Positions 7,790 to 39,188 of a stretch of 64,000 bases of DNA are shown here, one piece after another. A program made the translations under genes and the position numbers. The notes beneath the pieces are model-generated. The model ran no database searches and was not told the DNA's origin. It was given only the letters and a program-made list of their open reading frames with translations. Source of the stretch: Clostridiales bacterium (GTDB taxonomy: Bacteria; Bacillota; Clostridia; TANB77; CAG-508); NCBI GenBank assembly GCA_004554705.1, contig SFKS01000002.1, forward strand, positions 29,942-93,941, written 5' to 3'. Position 1 is the first letter of the stretch; each line of letters begins with the position of its first letter.

Positions 7790-7807
7790 AAAAAAGGAGA
7801 AGATATA

Positions 7808-8626
7808 ATGACAAGAGAACATATATCATTTACAGAATATACAATTAATAATAATAAAATAGCTTGGTGGCTTGTAAAAAATAATAAGAAATTCAATGTA
7901 AGACAAGTGTACAATTATGGGAATCGTGTAGCAGATTATGGAACCATAATAAAAGTTATTAAAGAAAGAAGAGATAATGTCCAAGCAGATGCATTAATAT
8001 CTGAGTTTGTTGAATGTGCTATTTTTGATAACAAAGACTTAAGTTTCCTCCCTAATTATGTAACTGGAACAAATGGGGTAAAATATTATACAAACACCAT
8101 TGTTTCAATGAATAATCGTGTATCCGCTTATGAGGTTTTGCATGGGGAAAGTCCTAAAATTGTATATATAACTGATATTCATGGGAATGGAACTACCAAT
8201 ATTTCTGCTGATGCTACATTAGAAAAATGTTATAAAGCGTTTGGAAAATTCTCCACTATTGATGGGTTTTTATCCAAAATACAAGGAAGAGGATATTCAT
8301 ATTATTTTAATAGTATATATAATACTGATGCAACTATTGATAGGATTAAAAATCGTAAAGGAGTTAACTGTACAGATAGTTCACAATTAACATATCGAGT
8401 AGGGAAAGGATTAGGTTATGATGTGCAATTTATTCATGTTAAATGTAAATCTGGAACTGGACATGTAAGAGTTAGATTAAAACATCCCAAACATACTGAT
8501 AATGCATGGATTTATCGTGACCCAGCTGCTGTTTTAAAAGGAAATGGAGTAAGGTCTAATTGGTGTATGAATGGGCGTGTAATTGCTTATAACCCAAAAT
8601 GGATTCTCAGCGACACTTATATTTAA
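7808..8626 (+). CDS. pseudomurein endoisopeptidase-like protein (PMBR-like N-terminus + transglutaminase-like Cys-His-Asp domain)
   Basis: 272-aa ORF with an AGGAGA SD. The N-terminus contains KDLSFLPNYVTGTNGVKYY, which resembles the pseudomurein-binding repeat. The C-terminus reads GVNCTDSSQL...GTGHVRV...WIYRDPAA, giving candidate C188/H219/D238. Confidence 0.6.
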   Translation: MTREHISFTEYTINNNKIAWWLVKNNKKFNVRQVYNYGNRVADYGTIIKVIKERRDNVQADALISEFVECAIFDNKDLSFLPNYVTGTNGVKYYTNTIVSMNNRVSAYEVLHGESPKIVYITDIHGNGTTNISADATLEKCYKAFGKFSTIDGFLSKIQGRGYSYYFNSIYNTDATIDRIKNRKGVNCTDSSQLTYRVGKGLGYDVQFIHVKCKSGTGHVRVRLKHPKHTDNAWIYRDPAAVLKGNGVRSNWCMNGRVIAYNPKWILSDTYI

Positions 8627-17963: not shown

Positions 17964-17972
17964 AAATATCCA
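17955..17972 (+). terminator. short hairpin overlapping the stop codon, followed by T-rich sequence
   Basis: GTGGATA-aaaa-TATCCAC at about 17955-17972, followed by ctatttcttcatttt. Confidence 0.3.
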
Positions 17973-18048
17973 CCTATTTCTTCATTTTCTAAAGGAAAGA
18001 ATATTTAAAAGAATATCCGTCGAATATTTAATCAGTGAGGTAACATGA

Positions 18049-21000: not shown

Positions 21001-22101
21001 GATTATGTTGATTTAGCTGATTCTTTAACGGTTAAAATTGAATCTGGGTATTTCAAGAAAAAAATCCAATTACCATATAAGAATAGGTTCCGTTTAGATG
21101 AAGTAAAAGTAAGATTTAGGTTTGATGGTAACAATAATCCTGTCTATATTTTTGATAATTATATAGAGGTTGATTTTTCTAAAAAACAAGATGGAGAAAT
21201 TATATATACTGAATCTGACATAATTAACAGTGAGGATAAAAAACTTTTAAATATTAATATTTTGAATTCTCAGGAAAAAGCTTATATGTTTAATAATGGT
21301 TTGACTGTTAACTTAAGTTTTGATGATTTAAGTCCGGGAGAATTTTATAGGATTTATTCTGTAGAATTGGTTGTTTTATATAGAAACACTGATAGTAATA
21401 TTCTTGTAAATAATGCTTTTATGGGAACCAATAGTGAGTATACTAGTTTAATTGGAGATAAAAAAGACGCTTATCTTTCTGGGTCTTTTTATGATGATGT
21501 TACAACAATGTCTCAATTAAAAAGTGATATGAATGCTGGTGACGATGGTTTTGTTTTAGAGGATAAAATTTATCAGTCTTTTACTGCTCGTAGTTCTAAT
21601 ATTAGTAGTATTACTGTTTACCCTAATGGTTTTAGGGGAAATCCAAATAGTCTGATTAAAATTGGAATATATGAAAATCATGGGACAACTCCGGGACAAT
21701 TAATTAAAGAAATTTATGCTAATGGTTGGAATAAATCTAATGCTCAATTTAAAGATTTAGATGAGATTAAATATAATATTAATGTTGATAATTTAATTTC
21801 TGGACAAATTTATTGGTTTAAAATGGAAGTTGTTAACCCAACAAAGAATAATTATTATCTCCTTAAATATACCGATAAAAGCATAAAAGGGTTTAAATTA
21901 TTATATGAGGAAAATAAAAATCTTAAAAATGCTTTTAGTAGTTTAAGCTTTAAAATTAATAGTTCAAATATTAAAAAAAGTTTTAATAATCTTCCAGCTA
22001 TACAGAGTTATTTCCCTAACCCTTTTATCCAAATTGGATTACATAGGGGAGTGGGAGAATGTGAAAAGCTGAAAATCGTTAAAGGCAGAGGAGTTAAATA
22101 A
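18049..22101 (+). CDS. giant tail/adhesin-like structural protein with CARDB/DUF11-like N-terminal domain
   Basis: 1350-aa ORF with a GTGAGGTAA SD. The N-terminal segment YQIYCKNISGTLIKDVKIQIANP...GESKLLFVS fits a CARDB-like pattern. Confidence 0.75.
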   Translation: MAYFKTVDLYSEIINQKKQFIFEVEQSQDSILPNQLYKYQIYCKNISGTLIKDVKIQIANPNSIIIDEPDLIPYIEIGDMEDGESKLLFVSSRCTTIGQHSVHFICYGHTTGMFYKTLTINCSYEKYVPELEHKIHIYNFSPYEDTYRLESKNYSNKVTQLLKKQKLPYKAGKQPFNISSNIDEGQSFLNQLSECKNTNEHAYQYLSRENYTINLLEEYVGENLFELLQEINEHSQYVNFEPLRTGTNELKNEFKEFESNGFINKFGLLNSEIFHHMGVIPTYTYMSDYLFRWAPSNENQLLNLYPPIKAMNWNTKAWAGHIFEVLEHSYDEKTGTEKTKLLYTFKNRQDAETYVKRTKEYNALENIDKYTYEIKERFWDTGVFFINIPLKDIPSNFFIIDNSEINALIQKAKPYGAKFLIRYIVDTTFDHNLDFYLHKTYKPYIPIDLGDYDKITYFIQSLKYHEIEETNECGDILKSIRLVPSGLSAYNGCNFNYNLDFYSSSPHPTIKDVSENNNSIDLDITPEYLLSYQKQPKSLSRIKDIEKLLFDYDFSNISFKETINFEDIRKISNEEAEVTNTGHKLWIDSLKEKNNNHHKTFNIETTQDGVRLIEEGKDFDLFRVLIPELLRETPNLEFGISLKDNTGKLHGLSVEYDTHVGKYYIKYVTSYNDNYILQKDGYTNLKSIGTKILKHDDLNLLNTIVMYFEKDDNSGDDFVFDYFNHIVIPSPSEISAFVRNATNKTYILNWDRIIQYTSPLNNLITFNTPQFFEANTYNEYINLSKKDTNWVNLYRMDSKENSYSYIKNTENDILGVDDITVHFENLNIPESAIIEKMYLKSIIEPNTLKEIHCSYGVQNNYVVNEAQKNIKVFEPNKIDGFHQNEEDSDSILFKLDEATLNENTKLIEFWNKKSIENIMFNDALDLSLDYLDNYDDYLEIRKPYWVQLSDFSNIAYDFNSFKSFSFIIEGYNSGSPLDMIVQCADYVDLADSLTVKIESGYFKKKIQLPYKNRFRLDEVKVRFRFDGNNNPVYIFDNYIEVDFSKKQDGEIIYTESDIINSEDKKLLNINILNSQEKAYMFNNGLTVNLSFDDLSPGEFYRIYSVELVVLYRNTDSNILVNNAFMGTNSEYTSLIGDKKDAYLSGSFYDDVTTMSQLKSDMNAGDDGFVLEDKIYQSFTARSSNISSITVYPNGFRGNPNSLIKIGIYENHGTTPGQLIKEIYANGWNKSNAQFKDLDEIKYNINVDNLISGQIYWFKMEVVNPTKNNYYLLKYTDKSIKGFKLLYEENKNLKNAFSSLSFKINSSNIKKSFNNLPAIQSYFPNPFIQIGLHRGVGECEKLKIVKGRGVK

Positions 22102-22217
22102 TGATACTTAATGTTGATTTAGATAATGAAATGACTGTGAAATTAATTAAAAAAGATAAAAATGGAAACATTATACAAGAAACAAATAAAGAGGCTGATT
22201 TAGATGGTAGTGAGTAG
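22101..22217 (+). CDS. 38-aa micro-ORF (hypothetical)
   Basis: Its ATG overlaps the TAA of the upstream gene (TAATG). It ends 14 nt inside the next ORF. Hand translated. Confidence 0.25.
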   Translation: MILNVDLDNEMTVKLIKKDKNGNIIQETNKEADLDGSE

Positions 22218-22632
22218 TGACCAAATCGTATATATGAATGGGAAAGAAAAAGGTTTACAAAAACTTTTTTCTCAAGAAAACTTTGGATATTTAGCAATCG
22301 GATACAGTGACGACCCTGCTTTTAGTAACGACGACAACAATAATGGTTTTAATGAAATCAAATTAGCAGACGAGCCAACATACACACGTGTTCCTTTACA
22401 ATTACAAGGAAACACTATTAAAGATAATGATACTGGAAAAGTTAGTGTAAAATTTACTGCTGATTTAGATATTGATAATATTCAATACGGAAGCCAAATT
22501 AACCAATTAGCTATTGTTGACAGTTCTGACAGTACAGACCCAAACACTGTACATTATGCAGCTGCCGTATTCCCAAAGTTTACTAAAAATTCTGATATAG
22601 CGATAACTTTCCTTATTGAAATGAAAATATAA
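22204..22632 (+). CDS. tail-collar fiber N-terminal-domain-like protein
   Basis: 142 aa. The pattern YLAIGYS...FNEIKL..EPTYTRVPL...VSVKFTADLD...INQLAIVDS...AAAVFPKFTK resembles the phage tail-collar fibre N-terminal domain. Confidence 0.5.
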   Translation: MVVSSDQIVYMNGKEKGLQKLFSQENFGYLAIGYSDDPAFSNDDNNNGFNEIKLADEPTYTRVPLQLQGNTIKDNDTGKVSVKFTADLDIDNIQYGSQINQLAIVDSSDSTDPNTVHYAAAVFPKFTKNSDIAITFLIEMKI

Positions 22633-22650
22633 AAAGGTGGTTTGTTTTTT

Positions 22651-22989
22651 ATGGGAATACATATTGAAGCACAACATGAGGCAGAATATAATCAAATTAA
22701 AGCTAGAGAGAAACAACAAGAAAGCATCAATAAATTAAATGATATTATCCCAGTAGTTAGCGAAACACAAGATATATTGAATAATGTGGATTTAGAACAA
22801 GTATCTGCTGATAATAATATTATCAAAGATGTAGTGGTTCGTAATTTAGAAGAACAAACCGATATTGATGAGATTAAAGATGCAGTTGATTCTTTGACAA
22901 AAAAAATTAATACTCTTACAAAAAAAATGAATACATTGTTAAAAACTGTTAATGATATACATGAAAAGATAAATGATGGTGATAAATAA
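22651..22989 (+). CDS. coiled-coil protein (fiber assembly/structural?)
   Basis: ATG 22651 is preceded by an AAGGTGG SD. The sequence is heptad-rich (KINTLTKKMNTLLKTVNDIHEKI). Confidence 0.5.
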   Translation: MGIHIEAQHEAEYNQIKAREKQQESINKLNDIIPVVSETQDILNNVDLEQVSADNNIIKDVVVRNLEEQTDIDEIKDAVDSLTKKINTLTKKMNTLLKTVNDIHEKINDGDK

Positions 22990-25900
22990 TGCCTTCTTAT
23001 TATAATAGGGTTATTGGGCGTTTAAGACCCGGAGCAATAGCTGATGCTGATGATATTAATATGATACAGACTAATGTGTCTGATGCTCTAAGGGCTGTTA
23101 TCAATGACCATCATCAAAACGATGCATTCATTTTAGGAGAAGATAAAAATGCTTTTTTATTATCTCCTGCCCCTAAACGTTCTGGACGTTATATCGACAC
23201 TATGAATTTAGTTGATAAAGATAGAGAAAAATGGTTATCCATTAGAAGATATGGATACCGTCAAAAAATTAAAAAAAGTAAAACTTCCTTATATAGTATT
23301 ATAGCTAAATTTAGAAATACAAGTAAAAAACCAGTTACTGTTTGGTGTGAGTTAAGAGATGATACTGATTTTTTATTGAAAAGAACTAGTTTTGAGTTAC
23401 CAGCAAATACTTTAGCAAGTGAATTTGAAATTGTTTTTGATGAAACTTTTTGTAGTACTGCTCCGGGATTATCACATAAAGAGATTGAACCTTTCGATAC
23501 AAAATATATGGCTCCACCTAAAAATCAAGAATCATTTGATGATGGAGTAGACCATACTAATGAAATGAATGTGAATAATTTTACTGTCGGTGCCAGTGAA
23601 CTATATTTCGTTATTAAACCATTAAATATTAATCAATACGATGTTTCTGTCAATGGAGATGAGGATGAAATCATTAATGATGATACTTTTGCTGTATTGG
23701 CTGATAGAGACGGGAATTATGGTAAACTATTAGAGCAAACTGGGAACGATGGTTTGTATTATGATGAAACAGCATATGATTTGCACTTTAGAGATGTTTA
23801 CGCTAATAGCTCAACTTATCTTTGTGAAATGGGGGAAGCTGTGATTGATGGGCAAAAAGTAAAATGTATGGATACTCATATTAGTATTGATGGGGCAAGT
23901 GAGTTTGGAAATGTTAAAACATATGTTTATATGGATGTTGATGGGCATTTAAAGGCAATTAATTCTAAAGCTTATATGGAGGATAATGAAGCTGATTTAA
24001 CAGTACCTCTGCCCGGTGGTATGCTTCTTATTGGTATTATCACTACTTATTTAAATGATAATAAAGCTCCAACCATTAATCAAGATGATACATCTTTACA
24101 TGTTAGAATGCGTAGCCATCATGAAAGATTAAGAAGATTAGAGAAAGAATTATCTTATACTAAAGATATAGCGTTCCCTCCTCGTTTAAAATATACATTA
24201 ACTGGTGAGGATATTGTTGATAGTACTCCAGAGAAAGGTTATAATAGTTTAAATATTGAAACTAATATGCCGGATAATACTAATGGTACTAAAAATGCTA
24301 ATGAAATTGAAGGAAGTAAGTTTTATTTAACTACTGATTCTCAAGGAAATTTCGTTATTAGAACATCTAGTGCAGAAGTAATCACAATTCCCGTAACTTT
24401 ACTTGGAGAGAAATCTGTTAGTGTAGATACCACAGACAAAGATGAAAAGAAAACAGATGAAAAGAAAACAGATGAAAAAGAAAAGAAAACTGAAACTGTA
24501 GTATCTCAAGAGAATATTCTCACAAAAGAGGAATTAAAAGGAGAGGAAGCTGTAAAACATATTACAGAAAATGTTAATATGGAGGTTGATGGAGAAAAAG
24601 GAATAGTTAAATTAAAAAATAATAATAATGCTTCTGGAGTAGGTATGACAGATGAAGAAGCTAAAGCTACTACTTTCAATCCATGGGATGATGATGCCTC
24701 AAATAGACCGAAAAATAAAGATATTACTCCTACAGAGAGAGAATATTCTGTTACAAAAGGGAAAAATGGAAAAAATGATTGGTCGAGTGAATTCCCAGCA
24801 ATGACCTTCTATACTGATACAGATTATAAATTAGATGGAATACATATTCCTATAACTAAATTTAAAAATTGTGATTCAATAAAATTTGTAATTTGGAAAA
24901 GACAAGGACCAAACAATAAAACAAACACCGTATGGTTAGAGAAAAAAGTCTACACCAGTAAAGACTTTTCACTAGAAAATGCTAAAGAAAAAGATGGATA
25001 TCAAATCATGGAAGATGGGTTCACCATTAAAATCGAAGATGGTTTAAACTTACCTAAAGGACAATATGTAATAGTATGTATACATACTCCGAAAGAAGGT
25101 ACTGGGTCATGTTATGTGGAAACATATAAACCGGATAATCCTAAAGATTTCTGTATCAGATATTATGGTGCAGGAGATGCATCTCACTTTTTATTAAAAG
25201 AAAGATATTTAGAAATTTGGTATAATAGTGCTACTTTTACTGGAACAGAGAAAAAATACAGTAAAGAAGGACATATTATTAGTGGAACAGTCACATATGA
25301 AAACAAAGAACCAATTACTAAAATTTTAGCTACAGGAAACATTCAGGTTCCAGAAAAATGTGAATATCATTTATATGCAGATACTGGAGGAGGTTGGCAA
25401 GAATTAAAACTTGATAAATCTACCGCTATTACTGGTGGAGGAATCTCATTCAGATGGAAACTTGAGTTTAAAGGAGATTCAGACACTCCAGTCTTATCTT
25501 ATAGTGATGAAAAGAAATATGCCCTTAATTTCACATTAACCAGAAAACAGTCTAATGTTGGTGCAGGATATTCTGATGAAAATGTTTGTGTTACTAGTAA
25601 AACTATTAATGGTAATACTATACTCAAAGAATATATGGGTAATCCTAATTTAAAGACTGATAAATTTAGTAATTGGGAGTTTGCTCGTATTTGGGCTACC
25701 GATAACCCATCTAATAAAATGATTGTTGATATAGCTGGGTCTGATACACAAGCTTATATTAAAAACGATACTATCGTAACAGATAAATACACAATTCCAT
25801 CTCAAGAATCAACTTTCGATATATTCTCTTTATATTATTGTGATTTAACATTAGATGATTTTTCAAAAACAAGTGTAGATTATAGTCATTATGATGCTAC

Positions 25901-27698
25901 TACAGAATATGATGAGCATAATTTACGTTTAAAACTTGATTATGATTATTCATATAATGATAATGATATAGCTTTATTTGATATTAATAGTGGAGTTATT
26001 AATGAAAATAGTAATGTGGTTGTTAAAGATGGAGATGCATTGCATTTTACAGCTGGAGGAATTGGTGAGGAAAATGAGATTCTTTACAAAATCCAAGAGA
26101 AAGGCAATACATTAGATTTAACAAAGTACTCTGGTATTAAAATTGGTTTTAATGCTGGAGGTTTGAGTGGAGATAGTTCAGCTAATGATACTGAACTGAT
26201 TAAAGGTTTAGGATTATATATTAGTTCTTCTTATGAAGACGATGCTCCAACAAACAAGAATTTATCATTAGATGGGAAAGAAATATTAAAAAATACAGAT
26301 ACACTCCCTGATTTAAATAAGTCAAAACAAGAAATTATTAATCAATATTATGGTAAAATCATTCAACAAAATGTTGTATATAATAATGTAACTTATACAT
26401 TATATTACCAGTATGTTAAAAATTCTGAAGGAAAATATATTTTACAACAATTACATGATTTAAAATCTTATGAAATTTTTAAATTACCACCATTTGTGGT
26501 TAAAAAAGATTCTAAAGGAGATATTCAAACTCAATATGTGCAAGTAAGTATTGACGGAGCTAATAATCGCTTAAACAATGTTAAAGAGATTGGACTTGTA
26601 AGTTTAAGAGATGAGGATGAGTTTGAAGTAATTAGGTCATGTACTATAGAGTTGAAGAAAATTAGAGCTATAGAATCTGATTATTATCCTATGTATAATC
26701 CTCAGGATAACGAAAAACTGTTACCTTTCGACCCAACTTTAGTTGGAGATAAAAACCATTATGAAATTAAAATGCATACAGAAGGGACAGAAAAAGTTAG
26801 GACTGAAAAAGTTAAACAAAAAGTTAAAAAAACTGTTACTGAAAAACAACCAGTTAAAGTCCCTAAAAAAGATAAAGATGGGCATGATGTTACAGATGAC
26901 AAGGGTAATGTTGTAATGGAGGATAAAAAGGACGAGAAAGGAGAAATAGTCTATGAAGAGGTGCAAGTTGAAAGATTAGTTGATGAGGAAGTTGAAAAAA
27001 CTGTTAAAACTACAACTAAGTATACTGAACCTCAAAAAGTTTGTCAATGTAAAGTCTACTATAATAGGATTTCTAAAGATGGGGAAACCTTATTTTATTG
27101 GAAAAATGATTCAACAACTACTCACTTTAACCATGTAGGTTTGCAAATTGCTTGTGATAGTTGGATTCCTAAAAATAGTTTAAGGCTAAATCTTTGTAGC
27201 GATGATAGGGGGCGTAATGTTGTTTATAGTATGAATATTCCTACTTTGAATTATATTCATGACCCTGTAGCTTCTACTTTAAATTATGATGTTATTAAGG
27301 ATACTGATGGAAATGTAACTAGTACTACTGCTAAAGAAGATGGTTTTGTTAATTTAGCTGCTGTGTTTAAGAAGATTAAAGATGATGTGGCTATTAAGTC
27401 TATATCTATTTCTGCTACTGATAAGTTTAAAACTTATATGCAGAAAGCTAAGGGTGAAAAAACCGTCACTAAGGAAAGTGTTGATTCTACTACTGGTAAG
27501 ACAACTACTACTACTGAAGTTACTACTATTGGTGATTCTAGCATTAGCTTGTATATTGGTAAGATTTCCTTGTATAAGGCTCGTACTATTCCTATTTTTG
27601 AGAATGCGATAAGGTTTAAGTTTTATAATCAGTCTGATGATGCTTCTGAGGATTCTGCGAAAATCAGGAAGGTTGGTGTTGTGGCTGAATATAGGTAG
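22989..27698 (+). CDS. giant fiber/adhesin-like structural protein with two Lys/Glu-rich low-complexity segments
   Basis: 1569-aa ORF whose ATG overlaps the upstream TAA. It contains a tandem KKTDE repeat and a KVK/EKV-rich segment. Confidence 0.75.
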   Translation: MPSYYNRVIGRLRPGAIADADDINMIQTNVSDALRAVINDHHQNDAFILGEDKNAFLLSPAPKRSGRYIDTMNLVDKDREKWLSIRRYGYRQKIKKSKTSLYSIIAKFRNTSKKPVTVWCELRDDTDFLLKRTSFELPANTLASEFEIVFDETFCSTAPGLSHKEIEPFDTKYMAPPKNQESFDDGVDHTNEMNVNNFTVGASELYFVIKPLNINQYDVSVNGDEDEIINDDTFAVLADRDGNYGKLLEQTGNDGLYYDETAYDLHFRDVYANSSTYLCEMGEAVIDGQKVKCMDTHISIDGASEFGNVKTYVYMDVDGHLKAINSKAYMEDNEADLTVPLPGGMLLIGIITTYLNDNKAPTINQDDTSLHVRMRSHHERLRRLEKELSYTKDIAFPPRLKYTLTGEDIVDSTPEKGYNSLNIETNMPDNTNGTKNANEIEGSKFYLTTDSQGNFVIRTSSAEVITIPVTLLGEKSVSVDTTDKDEKKTDEKKTDEKEKKTETVVSQENILTKEELKGEEAVKHITENVNMEVDGEKGIVKLKNNNNASGVGMTDEEAKATTFNPWDDDASNRPKNKDITPTEREYSVTKGKNGKNDWSSEFPAMTFYTDTDYKLDGIHIPITKFKNCDSIKFVIWKRQGPNNKTNTVWLEKKVYTSKDFSLENAKEKDGYQIMEDGFTIKIEDGLNLPKGQYVIVCIHTPKEGTGSCYVETYKPDNPKDFCIRYYGAGDASHFLLKERYLEIWYNSATFTGTEKKYSKEGHIISGTVTYENKEPITKILATGNIQVPEKCEYHLYADTGGGWQELKLDKSTAITGGGISFRWKLEFKGDSDTPVLSYSDEKKYALNFTLTRKQSNVGAGYSDENVCVTSKTINGNTILKEYMGNPNLKTDKFSNWEFARIWATDNPSNKMIVDIAGSDTQAYIKNDTIVTDKYTIPSQESTFDIFSLYYCDLTLDDFSKTSVDYSHYDATTEYDEHNLRLKLDYDYSYNDNDIALFDINSGVINENSNVVVKDGDALHFTAGGIGEENEILYKIQEKGNTLDLTKYSGIKIGFNAGGLSGDSSANDTELIKGLGLYISSSYEDDAPTNKNLSLDGKEILKNTDTLPDLNKSKQEIINQYYGKIIQQNVVYNNVTYTLYYQYVKNSEGKYILQQLHDLKSYEIFKLPPFVVKKDSKGDIQTQYVQVSIDGANNRLNNVKEIGLVSLRDEDEFEVIRSCTIELKKIRAIESDYYPMYNPQDNEKLLPFDPTLVGDKNHYEIKMHTEGTEKVRTEKVKQKVKKTVTEKQPVKVPKKDKDGHDVTDDKGNVVMEDKKDEKGEIVYEEVQVERLVDEEVEKTVKTTTKYTEPQKVCQCKVYYNRISKDGETLFYWKNDSTTTHFNHVGLQIACDSWIPKNSLRLNLCSDDRGRNVVYSMNIPTLNYIHDPVASTLNYDVIKDTDGNVTSTTAKEDGFVNLAAVFKKIKDDVAIKSISISATDKFKTYMQKAKGEKTVTKESVDSTTGKTTTTTEVTTIGDSSISLYIGKISLYKARTIPIFENAIRFKFYNQSDDASEDSAKIRKVGVVAEYR
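24441..24490 (+). repeat. in-frame tandem 15-nt repeat (gatgaaaagaaaaca x2 plus a degenerate third copy)
   Basis: Read directly from the sequence. It encodes DEKKT DEKKT DEKEKKT. Confidence 0.8.
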
Positions 27699-29261: not shown

Positions 29262-32200
29262 TTATAATTTGTGTCTATATCTATCTTTAAATTCTTGTTG
29301 TTTTCCGTTATTAAACCCAAGTGTTGGCAAATAGTAGCCCGTGCATCTGTCATAAGTCACTAAATCAGTAGACCCACAAATAGGACAAACGTTTATATTA
29401 TCATTAATAGTAAATTGACATTCTCGACAATAAGTAAATACTTTTGAATATGCCCAGAAAGTTACATCAGAATCTACAATTTTTTTATTTAAACTCCAAA
29501 TTGCTTCTGCATCACTCCAGACTTCTCCTAACCATAAATGAAGAATACTGCCTCCTAATGTGAGTTTATTATATTGTTGAGCGTTTTTAATATGTGCTAC
29601 TATATTTGAATCATCAGAAACGGGAATATGATTAGAGTTGGTTAAATAATAATTACCTTTTACACCTTGTACTATAGCATCTGGATATTTGTCCTTAATA
29701 ATTAGGGCAAACCGGTGAGCTGTAGATTCTGCAGCAGAGCCTATTACGCTCCAGCGAAGGTTATCACGCTCATGAAATTCTTCTTTTTTACTATTAAGTA
29801 ATTTAAGGATTTTTTCGCCTTCATTATCTGATATATTATTTAAAGACTCTAAACATTCATGCAAACCACAAAAACCTAATGTAATAGTAGTATTATCTAT
29901 ATCATACAATGGCTTTCCACTGTCTTTATCTTCCTGCAAAAGAAAATCAGACATATGTTTATTATAAATAGTATCTATAACACAGTTTCTACGATATATC
30001 AAACCATCATAAGCAATTTCACATACTTCATCTAATTTTTGATAAAATTTATTAACATCTCCATTACTATCTAAAGCAATTAATGGTAAATTTAATGTTG
30101 TATATGCAAAATTACCAGTATTTAAACAATCAACATCATAACTACCTGTCCAATTCATGGGGAGAGTAGTACGACAATTACCAGTTAAAATGAAGTCATC
30201 ACCAACAATAATTCTATCATTAACCTCAAAACAATAAGTATAATCAGTCTCATTTAATGGTATAATTTCTTTTACTGATTGACTTTTTGTTTCAGTAATA
30301 TGCCTATAATTATTATCTACTGACTGAACAATTTGATATTGTTTATCTCTTAAAGTTAATTGTTGTAAGATTCTAACACTCTCATAATTACAGCTAAGAT
30401 ATATCCTTTCAAAAGGTTGTCTATTCTTTTGATTCTTTGATGGTTGTATAATACGACTACTAAATTTAATACCTAAATTAAAACACGCCCATTTGAATAA
30501 TCGAGTATATTCCATATCAGTTGAAACAAATTCAGCAGCTAAACTTTTATTAAAACCACCATTAATCCTAATATAACCATTAGATGATAATAAACCGGAT
30601 AATAAGCCAGCTAAACAATTAATATCAGTTAAATCTGGTTTCTGTATTTCATCGCTACTAAAATAAAAAACAGTATAATTAACATCATCTCTAGAATGAT
30701 AAACAATTTTTTCTTTATATTTTATATTTAAATCATCTAATAATTTACGGGCATAATCAATCTTATCTTCTTTTAAAAGCATAAAATTAGCATGACCTTT
30801 ATCAAAATCATCACCTTTCTTTCCGTCTCCTAAATAAAATCCATATAACATAGCTCTTTTATCGGGGATTAAATGAGATTGTTCATCATTTAATATACAA
30901 GCGACATCCAATAAATTAGACTTACAACTTAAAATATTCTTTTTATTCATCGCACGATGTGTAATCATTGAATGATTTTTATCGCATATGAATGATTTAT
31001 TCCCTGCAAGTTTTATTTTATATAATTCTTGAGGTTTGTTTTTAATAAAATTCTTTGCTTTATGCCAAATAATATTTTTATCATCATCAACAGTCAATAC
31101 TTCAATATTATTAACTTTAGTTTTACCTATATCAGCATTAAGTAATTCATCTATTTCTTTAAAAGATAAATAACGTAATTGATTATCTATTTTTACCCAT
31201 AATGATGTATCTGGAGAAAAGCAGCCCATTACTGTTTTCTCTGATTCTGCGCAATTAACATAATATAATGTTGGATTATTAGCTCCTATCTCATGTACTA
31301 ATTTACAATTCCCACTATATTCATCTAAGTCTCCTTCTCTAATGTTAATCAAAATATTAGGGAAACGATGATATGCTCCTATTCCATCTTTTTCATTAGA
31401 TACTTCAAGTACAGCTCTAAAAATTAAATCAGCTTCTTTTTGATAATCGCCATAAACCCCGCTAACAATACCCCCTGGACCTATAGCTGGTTCATTTTTT
31501 AAAATCTCTGGCATAGACATATCTATTCCTATAGAGGAGAATAAACATTGCCCCCCGCGGCAAATTAAAGACATATTGCAATTAAAAATAAAGCCCTGAA
31601 TAGCTTGTTTAATTTCTTCATATGTTCTTCCACGTGCAAATACGGACAATAGAGAATTGAAGTTAGCATATCCCTGTCCACCACTAAATACGGTTGCTCC
31701 TGCCATAAAAGCTTGAAGCAAGTGATTTAAGAGCACCTCTAACGATTTAGCTGGTTTTGCGACAGAACCCATTAATCCATGACCATCAATCTTAAGTCCA
31801 TTCTTCGCAAAAAAACGTAAATCGTAATTCATACAATTAGGTCTTAAATGGAAATATTCCATATCATGCCAGTGAAGCAATCCTTCTTTATGTGCTTCAG
31901 AACAATGTTTAGGCATATCCATTAGTGCGTACTCTTTAGCTACACCATCATATGCATATTTTGCTATCATTTCAGGAGTGTATCCTATATTAGCGTTATC
32001 CTTACATCCATTTTGTAATAAATCTTCAAACTCTGATACACTCATTCCTAGTTTTCTATTTTGTTCTACAGCTTTAAAGTGACCCTCTTTTAATAATTGA
32101 GAAGAAACCTCAGCTCTAATATCAGAAGTAGATATCTCGGTAAGCCCGTCATTTTGTTTAAGTTTATATAATTTTTTAGCAATACGGTCTTGTATTCTTT

Positions 32201-32309
32201 CTGCAAGTTCCTTATCAGTTCCAGTTTCGGTTATAATTGTTTGTGAAATTAACCTTGGTTTGAAATCCTCTTTATTTCCATCTGTATGTATAACAGTAAT
32301 TTTATCCAT
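29262..32309 (-). CDS. nrdD: anaerobic (class III) ribonucleoside-triphosphate reductase, intein-containing
   Basis: There is an N-terminal ATP-cone. After intein removal the extein reads VMG-CRTTLPMNW...TTLNLPLIAL. The C-terminus has a CxxC...CPICG zinc ribbon and an RCTGYY glycyl-radical motif. Confidence 0.92.
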   Translation of the reverse strand: MDKITVIHTDGNKEDFKPRLISQTIITETGTDKELAERIQDRIAKKLYKLKQNDGLTEISTSDIRAEVSSQLLKEGHFKAVEQNRKLGMSVSEFEDLLQNGCKDNANIGYTPEMIAKYAYDGVAKEYALMDMPKHCSEAHKEGLLHWHDMEYFHLRPNCMNYDLRFFAKNGLKIDGHGLMGSVAKPAKSLEVLLNHLLQAFMAGATVFSGGQGYANFNSLLSVFARGRTYEEIKQAIQGFIFNCNMSLICRGGQCLFSSIGIDMSMPEILKNEPAIGPGGIVSGVYGDYQKEADLIFRAVLEVSNEKDGIGAYHRFPNILINIREGDLDEYSGNCKLVHEIGANNPTLYYVNCAESEKTVMGCFSPDTSLWVKIDNQLRYLSFKEIDELLNADIGKTKVNNIEVLTVDDDKNIIWHKAKNFIKNKPQELYKIKLAGNKSFICDKNHSMITHRAMNKKNILSCKSNLLDVACILNDEQSHLIPDKRAMLYGFYLGDGKKGDDFDKGHANFMLLKEDKIDYARKLLDDLNIKYKEKIVYHSRDDVNYTVFYFSSDEIQKPDLTDINCLAGLLSGLLSSNGYIRINGGFNKSLAAEFVSTDMEYTRLFKWACFNLGIKFSSRIIQPSKNQKNRQPFERIYLSCNYESVRILQQLTLRDKQYQIVQSVDNNYRHITETKSQSVKEIIPLNETDYTYCFEVNDRIIVGDDFILTGNCRTTLPMNWTGSYDVDCLNTGNFAYTTLNLPLIALDSNGDVNKFYQKLDEVCEIAYDGLIYRRNCVIDTIYNKHMSDFLLQEDKDSGKPLYDIDNTTITLGFCGLHECLESLNNISDNEGEKILKLLNSKKEEFHERDNLRWSVIGSAAESTAHRFALIIKDKYPDAIVQGVKGNYYLTNSNHIPVSDDSNIVAHIKNAQQYNKLTLGGSILHLWLGEVWSDAEAIWSLNKKIVDSDVTFWAYSKVFTYCRECQFTINDNINVCPICGSTDLVTYDRCTGYYLPTLGFNNGKQQEFKDRYRHKL
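30177..31223 (-). mobile_element. intein with LAGLIDADG homing endonuclease domain inside nrdD (aa 363-711)
   Basis: It starts with CFSPDTSLWV and ends with FILTGN followed by Cys. LAGLIDADG-like motifs are LYGFYLGDGKK and LAGLLSGLLSSNGYI. Codon coordinates were checked against the DNA. Confidence 0.85.
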
Positions 32310-34737: not shown

Positions 34738-35418
34738 TTATACTCCCTCTTCAAATATTTTTTTTAATGCTTTTATTTCTTTTACTGCTCTATCCCCCAC
34801 TCCTTTAATATTTTTTAATTCATCTCTAGAAGCGTTTAATACTTTTTGTGGACTTCCAAATTCCTTTAATAATAGTAATGCCATTTTTTCTCCGATTCCT
34901 CTTTGGCATCGTAGGATATCGACATCGGGGCGTTTACTCATAGAGACTTTAGGTTTTGCAGTAACTTGTGCATTTGCCTTGGTAACGGTTTCTGCTATAT
35001 CCATTATTTTCATTAAGTATTGTACTTCGTTTTCAACAAAAAAGACAGGGCATTTGTATAGTATTTCAATGTTTTCTGTCATTTTATCTATACTTTTTTG
35101 TGTTATTCTCTTTAATGTTGGAATTCTTTTTAATGTTTTTACATCTCCATAAACAATTGTGGCATAATAATCATATTCATCATTCATTCTTATAGCTTGG
35201 TCTTGTAAGTGTCCTGTAATATATGACCCTGCGAAGTCAGCCATTGTTTTTCTTTCTATGAGTAAAATTTTTTTATTATTTAACATTAAAGAAACATCTC
35301 CGTCCTTTAATGTTGTAATTTGTGTATTTACTCCTTTTTGGTTAAAAAAGGCCTGTGTTTTCTTCCCCATTTTTTGTTCTCTGCTATCTATATACGCACT
35401 TAATATAACGGGTTTCAT
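34738..35418 (-). CDS. XPF/Mus81/Hef-type ERCC4 structure-specific nuclease with C-terminal (HhH)2
   Basis: IDSREQ and GDVSLM...LIERKTMADF match the ERCC4 GDx(n)ERKxxxD signature. The C-terminus reads RGIGEKMALLLLKEFGSPQKVLNASRDELKNIKGVGDRAVKEI. Confidence 0.8.
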   Translation of the reverse strand: MKPVILSAYIDSREQKMGKKTQAFFNQKGVNTQITTLKDGDVSLMLNNKKILLIERKTMADFAGSYITGHLQDQAIRMNDEYDYYATIVYGDVKTLKRIPTLKRITQKSIDKMTENIEILYKCPVFFVENEVQYLMKIMDIAETVTKANAQVTAKPKVSMSKRPDVDILRCQRGIGEKMALLLLKEFGSPQKVLNASRDELKNIKGVGDRAVKEIKALKKIFEEGV

Positions 35419-35825
35419 TCTTTATTCCTCATTTCTATGGTTTTTTTAAAATACTTGTCAAAAAAATATTTAAAGAAATTTATCGTATATCTACAATTTA
35501 TTAAAACTGGATAAATTCCCAAATCCCCACTCCATGGGTATGTTCTGCATAAATCCATTATTTGGTCATCATGGCGTGTGCAAAGGTTAGTTTTTGGATT
35601 ATGATGTGGGCATTGAAAGTCCCTACAACATAATCCACATTGTACACATCCATCATACGCCATTACGTATTCCTTCGTGAAGATTTGTGCATTGTTTTTA
35701 ATAATGTATTCTATTGAATCATCTTTAAATTTTTTAGATAATTCTGGAAACTCATGCATATAATATTCTTTAAAAAAGGATATTGCTGCCTGTGTTCCAG
35801 TATTTTTTAATTTGTCTATCGTCAT
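35415..35825 (-). CDS. YkgJ-family CxxCxxCC cysteine-cluster (Fe/Zn-binding) protein
   Basis: CVQCGLCCRDFQCPHH...C...C. Confidence 0.55.
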   Translation of the reverse strand: MTIDKLKNTGTQAAISFFKEYYMHEFPELSKKFKDDSIEYIIKNNAQIFTKEYVMAYDGCVQCGLCCRDFQCPHHNPKTNLCTRHDDQIMDLCRTYPWSGDLGIYPVLINCRYTINFFKYFFDKYFKKTIEMRNKE

Positions 35826-38248
35826 ATTAATTCCTCAATCTGTGGAAATGTTTCATTTAAACCCATATAAAAGAATACGAACATTCCTTCGAAAAGAACT
35901 TGGGTTTCAGAGCATAGTAGTCTGTCCTCAAGGATAGTATCTTCATCTATATAAATGGTGAACCATGAGCATTTGTTTCCGTTTTTTGATATGAATGGTT
36001 TAACTTTGTGAATCATTCCTACATTGATTTGTGGGTTTTGTTTTTGTAATTGTTTTAGTTTTTCTTTTCCTGCTTCTGTATAGAATAATTGTTCTCTTTG
36101 ATATCTATCTGGTTTTTGCAAGTTTATTAAAGACAATATACTATATTTATCTTGTTTTCCTTGTACATGGATAACTAATGGTGTCCCCACTTCATGTATA
36201 TCATCAATGTATCTTCCCCTGATAAAATCTGGGACAAATAGTGAAATACTATCTACTCCATCAGTTACATTCAGGAAAGCATAATCTTTTTTGGTTTCAA
36301 AGGTTGTTGTTAAAACTTTAATATAAAAGTCTTGATAATCTGCTGATGATTGTAATTCTTGGATTGTTGATATTTGTTTGTTTATTTTTAATTCGGATAA
36401 ATCATAAAGGTTTAATACATTATTTTCTGGGTTGATTTTTATTCTTTGGAATTCTCTGAATAATTTTTCTTTTTCTGTCCATGAATGTTGTTGTTCATCT
36501 ATAATTGAATACAATTCATCTCTGTTTTCATTAAACCTATCAAATGCTCCAGCTTCTATTAGAGCTTTAATTGTTGTTTTACTAATACTTCTGGGTTTTT
36601 TACAAAGGAAGTCTTCGAAAGATTCGTATGGTTGATTTTCTATTAAATCTTTAGTGGCCGCCGGGCCAACACCTTTTATTAATGGGAATGATAAGTATAT
36701 GATTCCATTTTGATTTGAACAAACCTCTTTACTAATATTAATATCCGGGTTATGTAATTCTCCGAGTGTTTGTATTTCACTATAGATTTTAACTCTTTTT
36801 TCTTCATTGCTTGTATTATTTAGTAAAGAAACATAAAATTCAATTGGATAATATGCTTTTAAGTATCCGGTTTTAAATGATAATAATGCATATCCTACGG
36901 AATGTGATTCATTAAATGAATAATTTCCTGCTGCATGTATTTTCTCCCATATAGTTTCTATAACATCATCGGAGATGTTATTGTTTCGACATCCATTTGT
37001 GAATTTGATTTTATATTCATCAAGGAGGTCTAATTTTTTCTTTCCTATTGCTTTTCTGATTTTATCTGCTTCGGCATCAGAAAACCCTGCTAATGTTTTT
37101 GTGATTTGCATTAATTGTTCTTGGTAGAGTATACATCCCTGTGTTCTTTCTAATATTGGTTTTAGTAATGGGTGGTCGTATTCTATTTGTTGTTGTCCGA
37201 ATTTTCTTTGTATGTATCTGTCTGTGTCTCCACAGTCCATTGCTCCGGGTCTAATTAATGCAAGTGATGCTGATAGTTCAGAGAAGTTTTTAGGTTGCAT
37301 TTTTTTTACAAATTCTTCTCCAGCTGCCCCCTCTAATTGGAATATCCCTAATGGATTTTTGTTTATAGTTTTATAAACATTTGGGTCATCGAGGTCGGCT
37401 TTTTTGAATATTGATTCGTCTTCTCCTATTAGGTTTAAGCATTCTGCTATGATGTCTAATGTGTTTAATCCTAATAGGTCGTTTTTTAGTAATCCGAGTG
37501 TGTCTTCGCATATGGTTTTATCATAGCATATTAGGTTTGATTGTCCTTGTTTTAATGTTGATGCTATGTTTTCTATATCATATGGGAGTGTTAGCACTGC
37601 TCCTGCATGTTTTCCATAGGTGTATAGTTCTCCTATGAGTTGTTCCCATGTTTTTATGAATTGGGGGTTTTTTTGGAAGAATGCTTTAATTTCTGGGATT
37701 TGTTTTATTTTGTCTGTGTTTTCTTCGTCTCCCATGAGTTTTGTTAGTTTGTTTATGTATTGGAAGTCTAAATCGTATATTCTTTGTATTGCTTTTAATG
37801 CTGTTTTTGGGGAGTATCTCATTAAATTAGGGACTTGAAAAACTCTGTTTTCACCATAATCTTCTTTTATGAGTTCTATTGCATGTTCTCTTTTTGTTCC
37901 CTGTATATCTGTGTCGATATCCGGCATTGATTGTTTTGCTCTTTCCGGATTTAAAAACCTTGCAAAGCTTAAATTAAATTTTAATGGGTCTACCTGTGTA
38001 ATATTAAGTACATATGATACAAGGCTTCCTCCGGCAGACCCTCTTGAGTCCGCAAGTATAATATCGTTTGCTCTTAACAAACAGCAAATATAACTTGTAT
38101 TTAAAAAAAAGTCTTCTAAATTTGCATCTAAAATTACATTAAGTTCTTCATCTAATCTTTCTTGATGAGGTTTATCATTAATTCCTCTTCTAATTAAACC
38201 TTCTTCACATTTCTCTCTTAAATATTGTTTATTGTCCATTTTACACAC
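35822..38248 (-). CDS. dnaE: DNA polymerase III alpha (DnaE-type, family C) polymerase core, lacking the PHP domain
   Basis: Motifs are ARFLNPERAKQSMPDIDTDI, GLLKNDLLGLNTLD, IFQLEGAAG...ALIRPGAM, ILYQEQLMQI and IRKAIGKKK. It is in frame with the upstream PHP ORF across one TAA. Confidence 0.88.
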   Translation of the reverse strand: MCKMDNKQYLREKCEEGLIRRGINDKPHQERLDEELNVILDANLEDFFLNTSYICCLLRANDIILADSRGSAGGSLVSYVLNITQVDPLKFNLSFARFLNPERAKQSMPDIDTDIQGTKREHAIELIKEDYGENRVFQVPNLMRYSPKTALKAIQRIYDLDFQYINKLTKLMGDEENTDKIKQIPEIKAFFQKNPQFIKTWEQLIGELYTYGKHAGAVLTLPYDIENIASTLKQGQSNLICYDKTICEDTLGLLKNDLLGLNTLDIIAECLNLIGEDESIFKKADLDDPNVYKTINKNPLGIFQLEGAAGEEFVKKMQPKNFSELSASLALIRPGAMDCGDTDRYIQRKFGQQQIEYDHPLLKPILERTQGCILYQEQLMQITKTLAGFSDAEADKIRKAIGKKKLDLLDEYKIKFTNGCRNNNISDDVIETIWEKIHAAGNYSFNESHSVGYALLSFKTGYLKAYYPIEFYVSLLNNTSNEEKRVKIYSEIQTLGELHNPDINISKEVCSNQNGIIYLSFPLIKGVGPAATKDLIENQPYESFEDFLCKKPRSISKTTIKALIEAGAFDRFNENRDELYSIIDEQQHSWTEKEKLFREFQRIKINPENNVLNLYDLSELKINKQISTIQELQSSADYQDFYIKVLTTTFETKKDYAFLNVTDGVDSISLFVPDFIRGRYIDDIHEVGTPLVIHVQGKQDKYSILSLINLQKPDRYQREQLFYTEAGKEKLKQLQKQNPQINVGMIHKVKPFISKNGNKCSWFTIYIDEDTILEDRLLCSETQVLFEGMFVFFYMGLNETFPQIEELI

Positions 38249-39151
38249 TTACCATATTTGTTGAGCTAATAATTCTTCATAACGAGTATATTTGTCAAAT
38301 ACAGGGATTTCTCTTTTTGGAGTAGGAAGTTTTCCATTGCATGTTTTAGCTATTTTATCTGTTTGTTTAATAGCTTTTTCAACTATATCTGTTTCTCTAA
38401 AATGAGCTTCAACAGCGTTTTGTTTTACGATTTCATCGTTTCCTACACAGTTTGATTTTAAAGTTTCCTGTATTTCTGTGTATAATTTATGCCAAGCTGA
38501 TGCCTGTACAACTCGTCTCAAGTCTCGATTTTCTTCATTAATAAAATGAGCGTCTGTACTGACAGTCAATGGGATTCCGGTTTCGTCATGTAATCTTAAT
38601 AACTCAAAATTTATGATACGTTGGTCAGCATATCCGGGGTGCATTTGTAGTTCAAGACTGAAATCTTTATTGAATGCATCATATAATGTTCCGGCGAAAT
38701 CATATGCTTTTTCGTAATTGTTGTTTAAAAGTAGTTTTGATATGGTTCCTAATGAACATGCTGATGTACAGTATAATCCATCTGTGTTTTGTAGAAGTGT
38801 TTCGTAAGAGAGTATGGGTTTGTAGTAGAAATTTTCTACGGCGATTTTTTGTAGTTCTCTTATTCTTTTAACTCCTTCGTCTGTTTTAGCTAAGACGACT
38901 AAATGGTCTCTGTCTTTTGTTTTTTTTTCGTAGTTGGGTTGGCAGTAGAATTCGTTTCCGAATATGGGTTTGATGTTGTTTTTTTCACATTCTTGGTTGA
39001 ATTCTATCCATCCGGCGCATGATGAGTGGTCTGTGATTGCGCATGTATCTTGTTTATATTCTTTTAATGTTTTTACTAACTGTGGGATTCTGATGACAGA
39101 ATCATTTAGTGAGTATTCTGTGTGTAAATGTAAGTTTTTGAATTTATTCAT
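38249..39151 (-). CDS. PHP-domain protein corresponding to the N-terminal domain of DnaE
   Basis: Motifs are LHLHTEYSLNDS, CAITDHSSCAGW, IKPIFGNEFY and VSTDAH. ATG 39151 is preceded by AGAGGTGGA. Confidence 0.85.
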   Translation of the reverse strand: MNKFKNLHLHTEYSLNDSVIRIPQLVKTLKEYKQDTCAITDHSSCAGWIEFNQECEKNNIKPIFGNEFYCQPNYEKKTKDRDHLVVLAKTDEGVKRIRELQKIAVENFYYKPILSYETLLQNTDGLYCTSACSLGTISKLLLNNNYEKAYDFAGTLYDAFNKDFSLELQMHPGYADQRIINFELLRLHDETGIPLTVSTDAHFINEENRDLRRVVQASAWHKLYTEIQETLKSNCVGNDEIVKQNAVEAHFRETDIVEKAIKQTDKIAKTCNGKLPTPKREIPVFDKYTRYEELLAQQIW

Positions 39152-39188
39152 AATAAAATCCACCTCTATATTTATATATGATATCCCA

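Follow-up and report, generated by a model that had tools for sequence, protein, structure and literature searches.

A probable two-subunit family C DNA polymerase encoded by a tailed virus of Methanobrevibacter

The window analyzed here is a 64,000-nucleotide stretch of contig SFKS01000002.1 (assembly GCA_004554705.1, deposited as a Clostridiales bacterium; positions 29,942 to 93,941 of the forward strand). Its minus strand carries two adjacent genes whose products correspond to the two parts of a bacterial-type DNA polymerase III (Pol III) alpha subunit (DnaE, family C): an upstream gene for a stand-alone PHP protein and a downstream gene for a DnaE core that lacks the PHP domain (Table 1). 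A preliminary description of the window had reported two open reading frames (ORFs), 38249..39163 (304 amino acids) and 35822..38248 (808 amino acids), lying in one frame with only the TAA at 38249-38251 between them, and both the sequence and the ORF listing bear this out: the minus-strand junction reads CAA ATA TGG TAA GTG TGT AAA ATG GAC. The frame and the TAA were kept, but both starts were shifted. The PHP gene most likely begins at ATG 39151, giving 300 amino acids, and a Shine-Dalgarno (SD) motif, GAGGTG, lies at 39166-39161; the GTG at 39163 with which the listed ORF opens falls within this motif. The core begins at ATG 38239 (805 amino acids) and opens with the N-terminus MDNK-YL, which is conserved in the clade of relatives described below. 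The virus's own core belongs to a protein cluster of 353 members at 90% identity, and the 15 of them that were listed all share this start and this length. SD-like motifs precede 36 of the 54 genes in the window (67%, against a background of 8.8%), and none is present in the spacer GTGTGTAAA, where one was looked for. The stop codon of the core shares nucleotides with the start ATG of the gene that follows, and the genes are in this way strung together as coupled cistrons. Stop-codon reassignment, which the preliminary description had already thought unlikely, was ruled out because TAA is the main terminator, ending 43 of the 54 genes (TGA ends 9 and TAG 2).

The assignment of the two ORFs to the DnaE and PHP families, made earlier without database searches, was confirmed with Pfam and NCBIfam profiles, phmmer searches of the PDB, and Foldseek. 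In the core, the DNA_pol3_alpha (PF07733, E = 2.4e-55, model positions 1-260 of 260), DNA_pol3_finger (PF17657, E = 1.1e-48) and HHH_6 (PF14579, E = 2.8e-17) models scored above their gathering thresholds and were covered from one end to the other. The domains are the palm, thumb, fingers, an HhH domain of the beta-binding type and, at the C-terminus, two OB-like domains rich in beta structure. TIGR00594 gave 491.7 bits on the core (cut-off 434), while the NCBIfam equivalog cut-offs were not reached, the best of these models, PRK05673 (cut-off 1002), giving 508.8 bits for the core and 166 for the PHP protein. The PHP protein matched Pfam PHP over model positions 2-164 of 164 (E = 1.2e-38). The best solved relatives of both halves were the Pol III alpha subunits of Thermus aquaticus, Escherichia coli and Mycobacterium tuberculosis; the core matched T. 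aquaticus alpha at 1e-87, and the best PDB match of the PHP protein was to residues 6-288 of the same subunit. AlphaFold2 models of the core and the PHP protein had predicted template modelling (TM) scores of 0.81 and 0.86. The core model, with a mean predicted local distance difference test (pLDDT) value of 88, aligned with 4iqj_D at a TM score of 0.73 over 809 columns and with 7pu7 at E = 5e-41. The PHP model (pLDDT 88.5) aligned with 2hpi at a TM score of 0.82 and a root-mean-square deviation of 2.2 A. The overall architecture of alpha was thus matched by the two models, the core superimposing on the T. aquaticus and M. tuberculosis chains 4iqj_D and 7pu7 and the PHP protein on the PHP domain of 2hpi; the core takes in the rest of alpha with its OB-containing C-terminus.

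The two proteins are cut at the boundary between the PHP domain and the palm. The PHP protein covered positions 5-294 of PRK05673 and the core positions 293-907, and the alignment with E. coli alpha breaks between ...FLPQFPTGD and MSTEDYLVKRAKEGL (at about residues 285/286). Both the profile and E. coli alpha are covered without a gap, which indicates that nothing has been lost at the junction; the profile check for missing residues that had been proposed found the halves abutting within 1-2 residues. Judged by their sequences, the PHP protein and the core together make up one alpha subunit. The PHP protein corresponds to about residues 1-285 of E. coli alpha followed by a clade-specific C-terminal tail of about 11 residues (...YEELLAQQIW). 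The tail has no counterpart in E. coli alpha and follows the conserved pattern ...IPVFDKH-x-E-[LF]-[DN]-x-[LI]-F-x-x-[VI]-x-W; residues 280-300 appeared as a low-confidence helix in the AlphaFold2 model. A split intein was considered and rejected, as neither protein had an intein match in Pfam and the homology is seamless across the junction.

The active sites of both proteins are intact. The catalytic residues D107, D109 and D254 of the core align with D401, D403 and D555 of E. coli alpha and were invariant in 20 clade sequences. In the PHP protein, all nine canonical metal ligands are kept when aligned to T. aquaticus alpha (H8, H10, D17, H42, E67, H83, C132, D200 and H202, in the numbering of the 300-amino-acid protein), and these ligands together with H171 were invariant in 14 locus-derived homologs (minimum pairwise identity 33%) and in 22 database homologs. 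The PHP domain of E. coli alpha is without some of the ligands, having G134 and R203 where the window protein has C and H. With intact active-site residues and with the purifying selection described below, the core is predicted to be an active DNA polymerase and the PHP protein a 3'-5' exonuclease. On the model of T. aquaticus Pol III and M. tuberculosis DnaE1, the intact ligands would make the PHP protein a putative proofreading subunit.

The preliminary description had offered three explanations for the split: a genuine two-subunit polymerase, readthrough of the stop, or an assembly error or inactivating mutation. A lone in-frame stop in what is normally a single gene is the classic signature of the last of these. 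However, the stop was present in other contigs, the junction being identical in 12 assemblies of this virus that were made independently from separate sequencing runs. The split also extends far beyond this virus. About 120 of the best core homologs (41-99% identity) were approximately 800 amino acids long and lacked the PHP domain, the exceptions being intein carriers, and the best PHP homologs were stand-alone proteins of approximately 300 amino acids, apart from one 233-amino-acid fragment. These sequences form a monophyletic clade on a long separate branch in DnaE trees. The split was found in every clade locus examined, which gave 16 distinct junctions with core identity down to 38%. Outside the clade, loci found with the same profile mostly had the PHP domain fused: 75 of 80 in GTDB bacterial genomes, 68 of 80 in IMG/VR, and 71 of 80 in metagenomes. 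From these comparisons the PHP/core split appears to be specific to the clade. The choice of query mattered in these searches: a single-sequence scan of IMG/VR matched nothing where an alignment-based scan did, and the metagenome scan added one further clade locus only. No clade member was present among 50,697 deposited phage and virus genomes, in which all matches were below 60% identity and those listed were at 29-35%.

Both genes are under selection. The ratio of nonsynonymous to synonymous substitution rates (dN/dS) between the window and a relative at 71% identity was 0.14 for the PHP gene and 0.15 for the core, and between two copies found in Methanobrevibacter chromosomes (below) it was 0.068 and 0.064, values which point to purifying selection on both genes. 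The identical assemblies, the persistence of the split down to 38% identity, the strong purifying selection (dN/dS 0.06-0.15) and the invariant active sites refute both an error of sequencing or assembly and a recently acquired inactivating mutation, explanations of negligible probability. The stop is a real, old and conserved feature.

Comparison of the 16 junctions showed that the position of the split is conserved while its details are not. The stop codon is TAA, TAG or TGA, and the core start is ATG, GTG or TTG, always at the position corresponding to the M in MDNK. Measured from the stop, the start lies at -4 (ATGA), -1 (TAATG, four times), 0, +1, +3, +5, +6 or +9 nucleotides. The core is in frame with the PHP gene in eight lineages and out of frame in the other eight, and all three relative frames were seen. 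SD-like motifs precede the core start in 12 of the 16 lineages, lying within the last PHP codons or the spacer, compared with the 8.8% background. Termination-reinitiation requires overlapping genes or very short distances between stop and start, is nearly abolished at a distance of about 20 nucleotides, and gene pairs spaced so closely are over-represented among those for subunits of heteromeric complexes (PMC10666635). By the definition in that work the PHP and core genes would count as a coupled pair, since they are co-directional and separated by -4 to +9 nucleotides in all 16 lineages.

These junctions also bear on programmed readthrough, in which the TAA would be leaky and the relevant product would be, or would include, a full-length alpha of approximately 1,108 amino acids, the separate proteins being by-products or made in a regulated ratio. 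The window and seven other lineages do have the genes in frame with a single stop and no second stop in a spacer of 0-9 nucleotides, and a naturally fused relative indicates that a fused chain is viable. In the other eight lineages the genes are out of frame or overlap as TAATG or ATGA, so that fusion is impossible there and the in-frame arrangement of the window is incidental. In addition, TAA is the usual terminator in this genome (43 of 54 genes), an SD-like motif stands before the core start in most lineages, and the conserved N-terminal Met or Val of the core is a start codon in every lineage. The junction RNA was less structured than 199 of 200 shuffled sequences (z = +2.19), and a search of the junction against Rfam matched no family. 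The features expected of programmed readthrough were therefore lacking at the level of frame, RNA structure and known elements alike. The varied stops and frames, short distances and SD motifs indicate two coupled genes rather than conserved readthrough, which as the explanation of the pair is highly unlikely.

Several observations indicate that the two genes behave as a unit. Their divergence from the window sequences is correlated (r = 0.88). In the viral genomes they lie in a syntenic module with the order of a gene of about 140 codons, PHP, core, a Cys-rich gene of about 136 codons, an ERCC4 nuclease, dCTP deaminase and NrdD, with homing endonucleases and inteins interspersed. In two Methanobrevibacter metagenome-assembled genomes (MAGs) the PHP and core genes occur as a pair with no other viral gene, between a conserved transporter gene and an ABC-ATPase/FmdE/NAC neighborhood (L001 5092-8403, which is the same as L268 9929-13237, in GCA_050872065.1, JBNMGD010000003.1; and L008/L269 in NZ_JBJEIO010000010.1). 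No homolog of the Cys-rich gene is found beside the chromosomal pair. A DUF4145 gene follows it. The flanking transporter gene was found in the genomes of about 75 Methanobrevibacter species and the pair in only two, and at least five Methanobrevibacter genomes have the same flanks without the pair, one of them holding CMD, PNPOx, binding protein and FecCD permease genes there. The presence of the flanks without the pair in other genomes, together with the dN/dS of about 0.07, indicates that the chromosomal pair is a lineage-specific insertion under maintenance. It looks like a domesticated family C polymerase in an archaeon.

One relative with the same synteny encodes the PHP domain and core as a single protein of 1128 amino acids (P0282; L343 1721-5107, Logan contig SRR27460153_3110). 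It was found in an exhaustive search of 1.84 billion representatives. In a bootstrapped neighbor-joining tree it was sister to a split member (98%) and lay inside a subclade of split members (100%), and because of this nested position it is most simply explained as a secondary re-fusion. In the sister clade, forms of about 800 amino acids are mixed with long forms. One of the long proteins there (P0285, 1271 amino acids) has an N-terminal domain like family 4 uracil-DNA glycosylases before the PHP domain and core, its motifs CxxCxL...GEAPG having been recognized by eye. Several members of the split clade carry inteins inside the DnaE core, which gives forms of about 1200 amino acids. Independent separations of PHP and core, at the same boundary, were also seen outside the clade, in two unrelated viral contigs: in L144 (IMGVR_UViG_3300014205_000177) three genes (3.9 kb) lie between them, and in L150 (IMGVR_UViG_3300014913_000022) the genes are adjacent and overlap by 11 nucleotides. 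A Colwellbacteria MAG (Patescibacteria; L042) may hold a third separation, though the frame change there may be an error. No donor lineage of the clade could be named, the nearest sequences (approximately 35-37% identity) coming from Patescibacteria and unrelated viral contigs.

Once split, the two proteins might no longer work together: the PHP protein could act on its own as a phosphoesterase or nuclease, in repair or nucleotide metabolism for instance, leaving the core to work alone without proofreading. Stand-alone PHP enzymes exist (RNase AM and the PHP phosphoesterases), the model of the core was confident without the PHP domain, and in the viral contig L144 the PHP and core genes lie 3.9 kb apart. 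However, RNase AM and the phosphoesterases were the weaker structural matches: in both fold and sequence the PHP protein is of the DnaE type, with its TM score of 0.82 to T. aquaticus alpha compared with at most 0.48 to stand-alone PHP enzymes. It is also more conserved than the core (52-57% versus 47-50% identity). The strict adjacency of the genes in 16 of 16 lineages, their co-divergence, their movement into a host chromosome as a two-gene unit and their re-fusion in a nested lineage all stand against such an uncoupling, which is quite improbable.

The evidence on junctions, selection and shared behavior favors the first of the three explanations, and it is very probable that the pair is a genuine two-subunit, DnaE1-like replicative polymerase of family C in a tailed Methanobrevibacter virus. 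An ancestral single-chain alpha would have been cut precisely at the PHP/palm boundary into two neighboring genes, the upstream one encoding a proofreader of 300 amino acids and the downstream one the polymerase proper of 805 amino acids. The genes would share one transcript and yield two separate polypeptides. In the window, ribosomes would stop at the TAA and restart 9 nucleotides further on at an ATG without an SD motif, by termination-reinitiation; most relatives have a start overlapping or adjoining the stop, or an SD within the last PHP codons that would assist translation of the core, or both. The PHP protein and core would then re-associate non-covalently into the architecture of single-chain alpha, with the conserved PHP tail a candidate for holding the subunits together.

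A number of points weigh against this reading. The binding of the PHP protein to the core, and with it the formation of a complex, is a step that we infer, as are the exonuclease activity and the mechanism of coupling. In the window one stop alone separates the two in-frame genes, the spacer holding no second one, and in lineages of this kind low-level readthrough may yield some fusion protein. The gap of 9 nucleotides, which lacks an SD, falls towards the upper limit of the distances at which reinitiation is efficient (PMC10666635). The fused relative is known from one 14.6-kb contig. In pairwise alignment, the linker that holds the internal beta-clamp motif of E. coli alpha (QADMF, residues 920-924) falls in a deletion, so the canonical motif is missing from the core, and no beta-type or PCNA-interacting-protein (PIP)-type clamp motif was conserved in the core, the PHP protein or the C-terminus of the XPF-like nuclease. 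Searches of the window and about 16 kb of flanking genome (about 80 kb in all) with Pfam, PHROGs and NCBIfam recognized neither a sliding clamp (PCNA or DnaN) nor a clamp loader. In an archaeal cell the enzyme would have to be processive without a bacterial beta-clamp.

That the cell is archaeal was also proposed in the preliminary description, from a Pei-like lysin among other features. The lysin is a Peptidase_C71 protein scoring above the Pfam threshold (Table 1), and its type serves as a marker of Methanobacteriales hosts. tblastn comparisons gave 90% identity with the annotated Pei of Caudoviricetes sp. vir249, a virus with a Methanobacteriales host, and 69% with its counterpart in Methanobrevibacter smithii tailed virus 1 (MSTV1), which has been isolated; these identities and the threshold score bear out the earlier reading as an archaeal virus. 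At the nucleotide level, window positions 7785-8605 were 86% identical to vir249 (BK063678.1, 26258-27076). The rest of window positions 1-25000 had no nucleotide match to any deposited phage or virus, and Pei was the sole gene shared with vir249, which suggests that a lysin cassette has been exchanged between otherwise unrelated Methanobrevibacter viruses. Relatives of the Baseplate_J protein were found in Methanobacterium virus PhiF1 and haloarchaeal tailed viruses and came almost entirely from archaeal tailed viruses; the genome has a tape-measure gene immediately upstream of the window. The G+C content (GC) is about 0.30 throughout, like that of Methanobrevibacter contigs. Pei, the baseplate J relatives, the GC, the use of SD motifs and the chromosomal homolog in Methanobrevibacter MAGs together support, indirectly, the view that the window belongs to a tailed virus (Caudoviricetes) with an archaeal host, Methanobrevibacter.

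A bacterial host such as Alistipes or another member of the Bacteroidota would remove the cross-domain aspect of the finding. DnaE is common in bacteriophages, and the relative at 71% identity (L007, CAVFGN010000005.1) was deposited in a MAG labelled Alistipes finegoldii ("cleanbin"). However, that contig has a GC of 0.29, whereas Alistipes finegoldii has a GC of about 0.57, and the frequency of SD-like motifs in the window (67% of genes) is unlike the Bacteroidota, which are mostly without SD-led initiation. A Pei specific for pseudomurein, with its identities to the enzymes of cultured MSTV1 and of a Methanobacteriales virus, and baseplate relatives that are almost all archaeal would also be difficult to explain, as would the homologous pair between Methanobrevibacter housekeeping genes in two MAGs. 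A second cleanbin record (L326, CAVDAS010000021.1, labelled "Bacteroidaceae bacterium") was a Methanobrevibacter-like chromosome, with a GC of about 0.29 and a transporter gene 85% identical to that of Methanobrevibacter. The Bacteroidota labels of both records are probably due to mis-binning in one MAG series, and a bacterial host is scarcely plausible.

Two other features that had been taken as archaeal fared less well. The archaeal-type promoters were unconfirmed, as the TATA consensus TTTATATA was not enriched in the window, with 27 occurrences observed against 19.8 +/- 4.9 expected. With respect to the Hef/XPF- and XPD-like proteins, the ERCC4/XPF-like nuclease was confirmed and a helicase of the Rad3/XPD/DinG family is present, but the helicase scored higher against the bacterial DinG/YoaA models than against rad3.

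The genes on either side of the pair are partly conserved with it (Table 1). The downstream Cys-rich protein of 136 amino acids had no Pfam, PHROGs or NCBIfam match and the upstream protein of 140 amino acids no family match; both are candidates for polymerase accessory factors. The ERCC4/XPF-type nuclease is syntenic in L005, L006, L250-L266 and L343 and is part of the conserved replication module. Elsewhere in this module the anaerobic ribonucleotide reductase NrdD (window 29262-32309, minus strand) contains an intein bearing a LAGLIDADG domain, an intein that relatives have or lack (L262 versus L263), and HNH, GIY-YIG and NUMOD3 homing endonucleases are spread through it.

Table 1. Features of the polymerase locus and of the lysin gene; positions are those of the window.
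Feature	Position	Strand	Evidence
Stand-alone PHP protein gene, 300 amino acids	38252..39151	-	Pfam PHP, PDB phmmer, AlphaFold2/Foldseek, invariant ligands
SD-like GAGGTGG before PHP start ATG 39151	39160..39166	-	Direct sequence reading
TAA, stop of PHP gene	38249..38251	-	Identical in 12 assemblies
Spacer GTGTGTAAA, 9 nucleotides, PHP stop to core start	38240..38248	-	Direct reading
DnaE core gene without PHP domain, 805 amino acids	35825..38239	-	Pfam, TIGR00594, PDB phmmer, Foldseek
ATGA overlap of core TGA stop and ATG of next gene	35822..35825	-	Direct reading
Downstream gene, 136 amino acids, CxxCGxCC...C...C..H	35415..35825	-	Homologs at or near core 3' side in L005, L006, L262, L265 (38-66% identity)
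Upstream gene, 140 amino acids	39189..39611	-	Homologs directly upstream of PHP in L005, L262, L265 (33-67% identity)
ERCC4/XPF-type nuclease with (HhH)2, 226 amino acids	34738..35418	-	Pfam ERCC4 1.4e-16, HHH_5 7e-10
Pei, Peptidase_C71, Methanobacteriales host marker	7808..8626	+	PF12386 34.1 bits (cut-off 22)

The remainder of the genome, which is approximately 96-112 kb when complete (for example Logan SRR11413600_1102), is poorly recognized by protein family databases. PHROGs recognized almost none of 20 window proteins, NCBIfam and Pfam searches of the larger unannotated window proteins found no clamp, clamp loader, primase or replicative helicase, and a search of the window for tRNA genes found none. 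Three large proteins encoded downstream of the baseplate genes (window 13860-27698, plus strand; 1367, 1350 and 1569 amino acids) have no family match and are probably tail fibers or adhesins. A 903-amino-acid protein (61188-63899, minus strand) had no match in Pfam, PHROGs or NCBIfam and has a homolog of 969 amino acids in the related contig L248; heading the early or replication region, it is a candidate primase or helicase. The approximately 16 kb of flanking genome encodes the tape measure, a transglutaminase-fold protein and thymidylate synthase. Just past the 3' end of the window, about 3 kb beside the thymidylate synthase gene has no called gene (L248 2581-5535) in a genome that is otherwise densely coded.

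Comparison with known polymerases places the virus pair closest to the bacterial DnaE1 alpha subunits with an active PHP domain, those of T. aquaticus (2hpi/4iqj) and M. tuberculosis (5lew/7pu7). They have the same domain set in the same order, the same catalytic aspartates and the same nine PHP ligands, and were the best matches in sequence and structure. Unlike these, the virus enzyme has its PHP domain in a gene and polypeptide of its own, with the extra tail of about 11 residues; its beta-clamp linker is deleted, two OB-like beta domains stand at the C-terminus, no NCBIfam equivalog cut-off is reached, and the host is archaeal. Among annotated viral proteins the nearest relatives (30-35% identity) are the DnaE proteins of phages (the actinophage "DnaE-like DNA polymerase III alpha" and those of Bacillus, Geobacillus and Moorella phages). 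In phage DnaE the region past the fingers diverges from E. coli alpha (Kazlauskas & Venclovas 2011, PMC3201878), as it does in the virus core, but the virus clade differs from phage DnaE in being monophyletic, on a long branch, and split.

Other replicases also come in separate parts. The E. coli Pol III core of alpha and epsilon follows the same logic, with polymerase and 3'-5' exonuclease in separate proteins that must assemble. There, however, the exonuclease is the unrelated DnaQ-fold epsilon and the PHP domain is still fused to alpha with some ligands lost, whereas in the virus pair the detached subunit is the PHP domain itself. The cyanobacterial dnaE is likewise naturally split (dnaE-n/dnaE-c), but at another position, with the genes far apart and the halves ligated by trans-splicing through a split intein, while the virus junction has no intein sequence. 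Archaeal PolD, with its small proofreading exonuclease of the metallo-phosphoesterase type, DP1, and its large catalytic subunit DP2, is an analogy in layout only, as the folds and ancestry are unrelated.

Family C polymerases are regarded as the hallmark replicases of Bacteria and their phages. As DnaE is ordinary in bacteriophages (1,419 phage records were matched), the DnaE family assignment alone is not novel; the surprise is the archaeal host and not the carriage by a virus. No report of DnaE in methanogen viruses was found in the literature searched, which did not cover the compendium of Medvedeva et al. 2023. Compared with that literature, three findings are new: a family C polymerase in archaeal viruses, a conserved fission that makes the PHP domain a subunit of its own, with a single apparent reversal, and the chromosomal PHP and core copies in Methanobrevibacter. 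The Methanobrevibacter viruses that carry this DnaE form a large and widespread group with genomes of approximately 100-150 kb, of which gut and rumen-type assemblies have yielded hundreds of contigs.

A more far-reaching proposal, which we consider unlikely, is that the fission was an adaptation that lets a bacterial-type family C replicase work in an archaeal cell. The freed PHP tail (...F-D-K-H-x-E-[LF]-[DN]-x-[LI]-F-x-x-[VI]-x-W) would dock the proofreader, or tether the enzyme to an archaeal partner such as PCNA in place of the beta-clamp motif, or both, and in some Methanobrevibacter the pair would have been domesticated as a cellular polymerase. If this were true, it would be the first family C polymerase operating in Archaea.

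Apart from that proposal, the pair of genes is a natural experiment in which a polymerase was cut at the PHP/palm boundary, kept in two parts over deep divergence, and re-fused at least once. It bears on how proofreading subunits become separated from polymerases, as in alpha and epsilon or DP1 and DP2, on the PHP domain as a detachable module, and on how, in a cell with PCNA, a replicase of the bacterial type may function when it has no beta-clamp. In annotation, such gene pairs should be treated as two subunits rather than as pseudogenes or frameshifts, and the pair can conveniently be used to recognize these methanogen viruses in metagenomes of gut and rumen.

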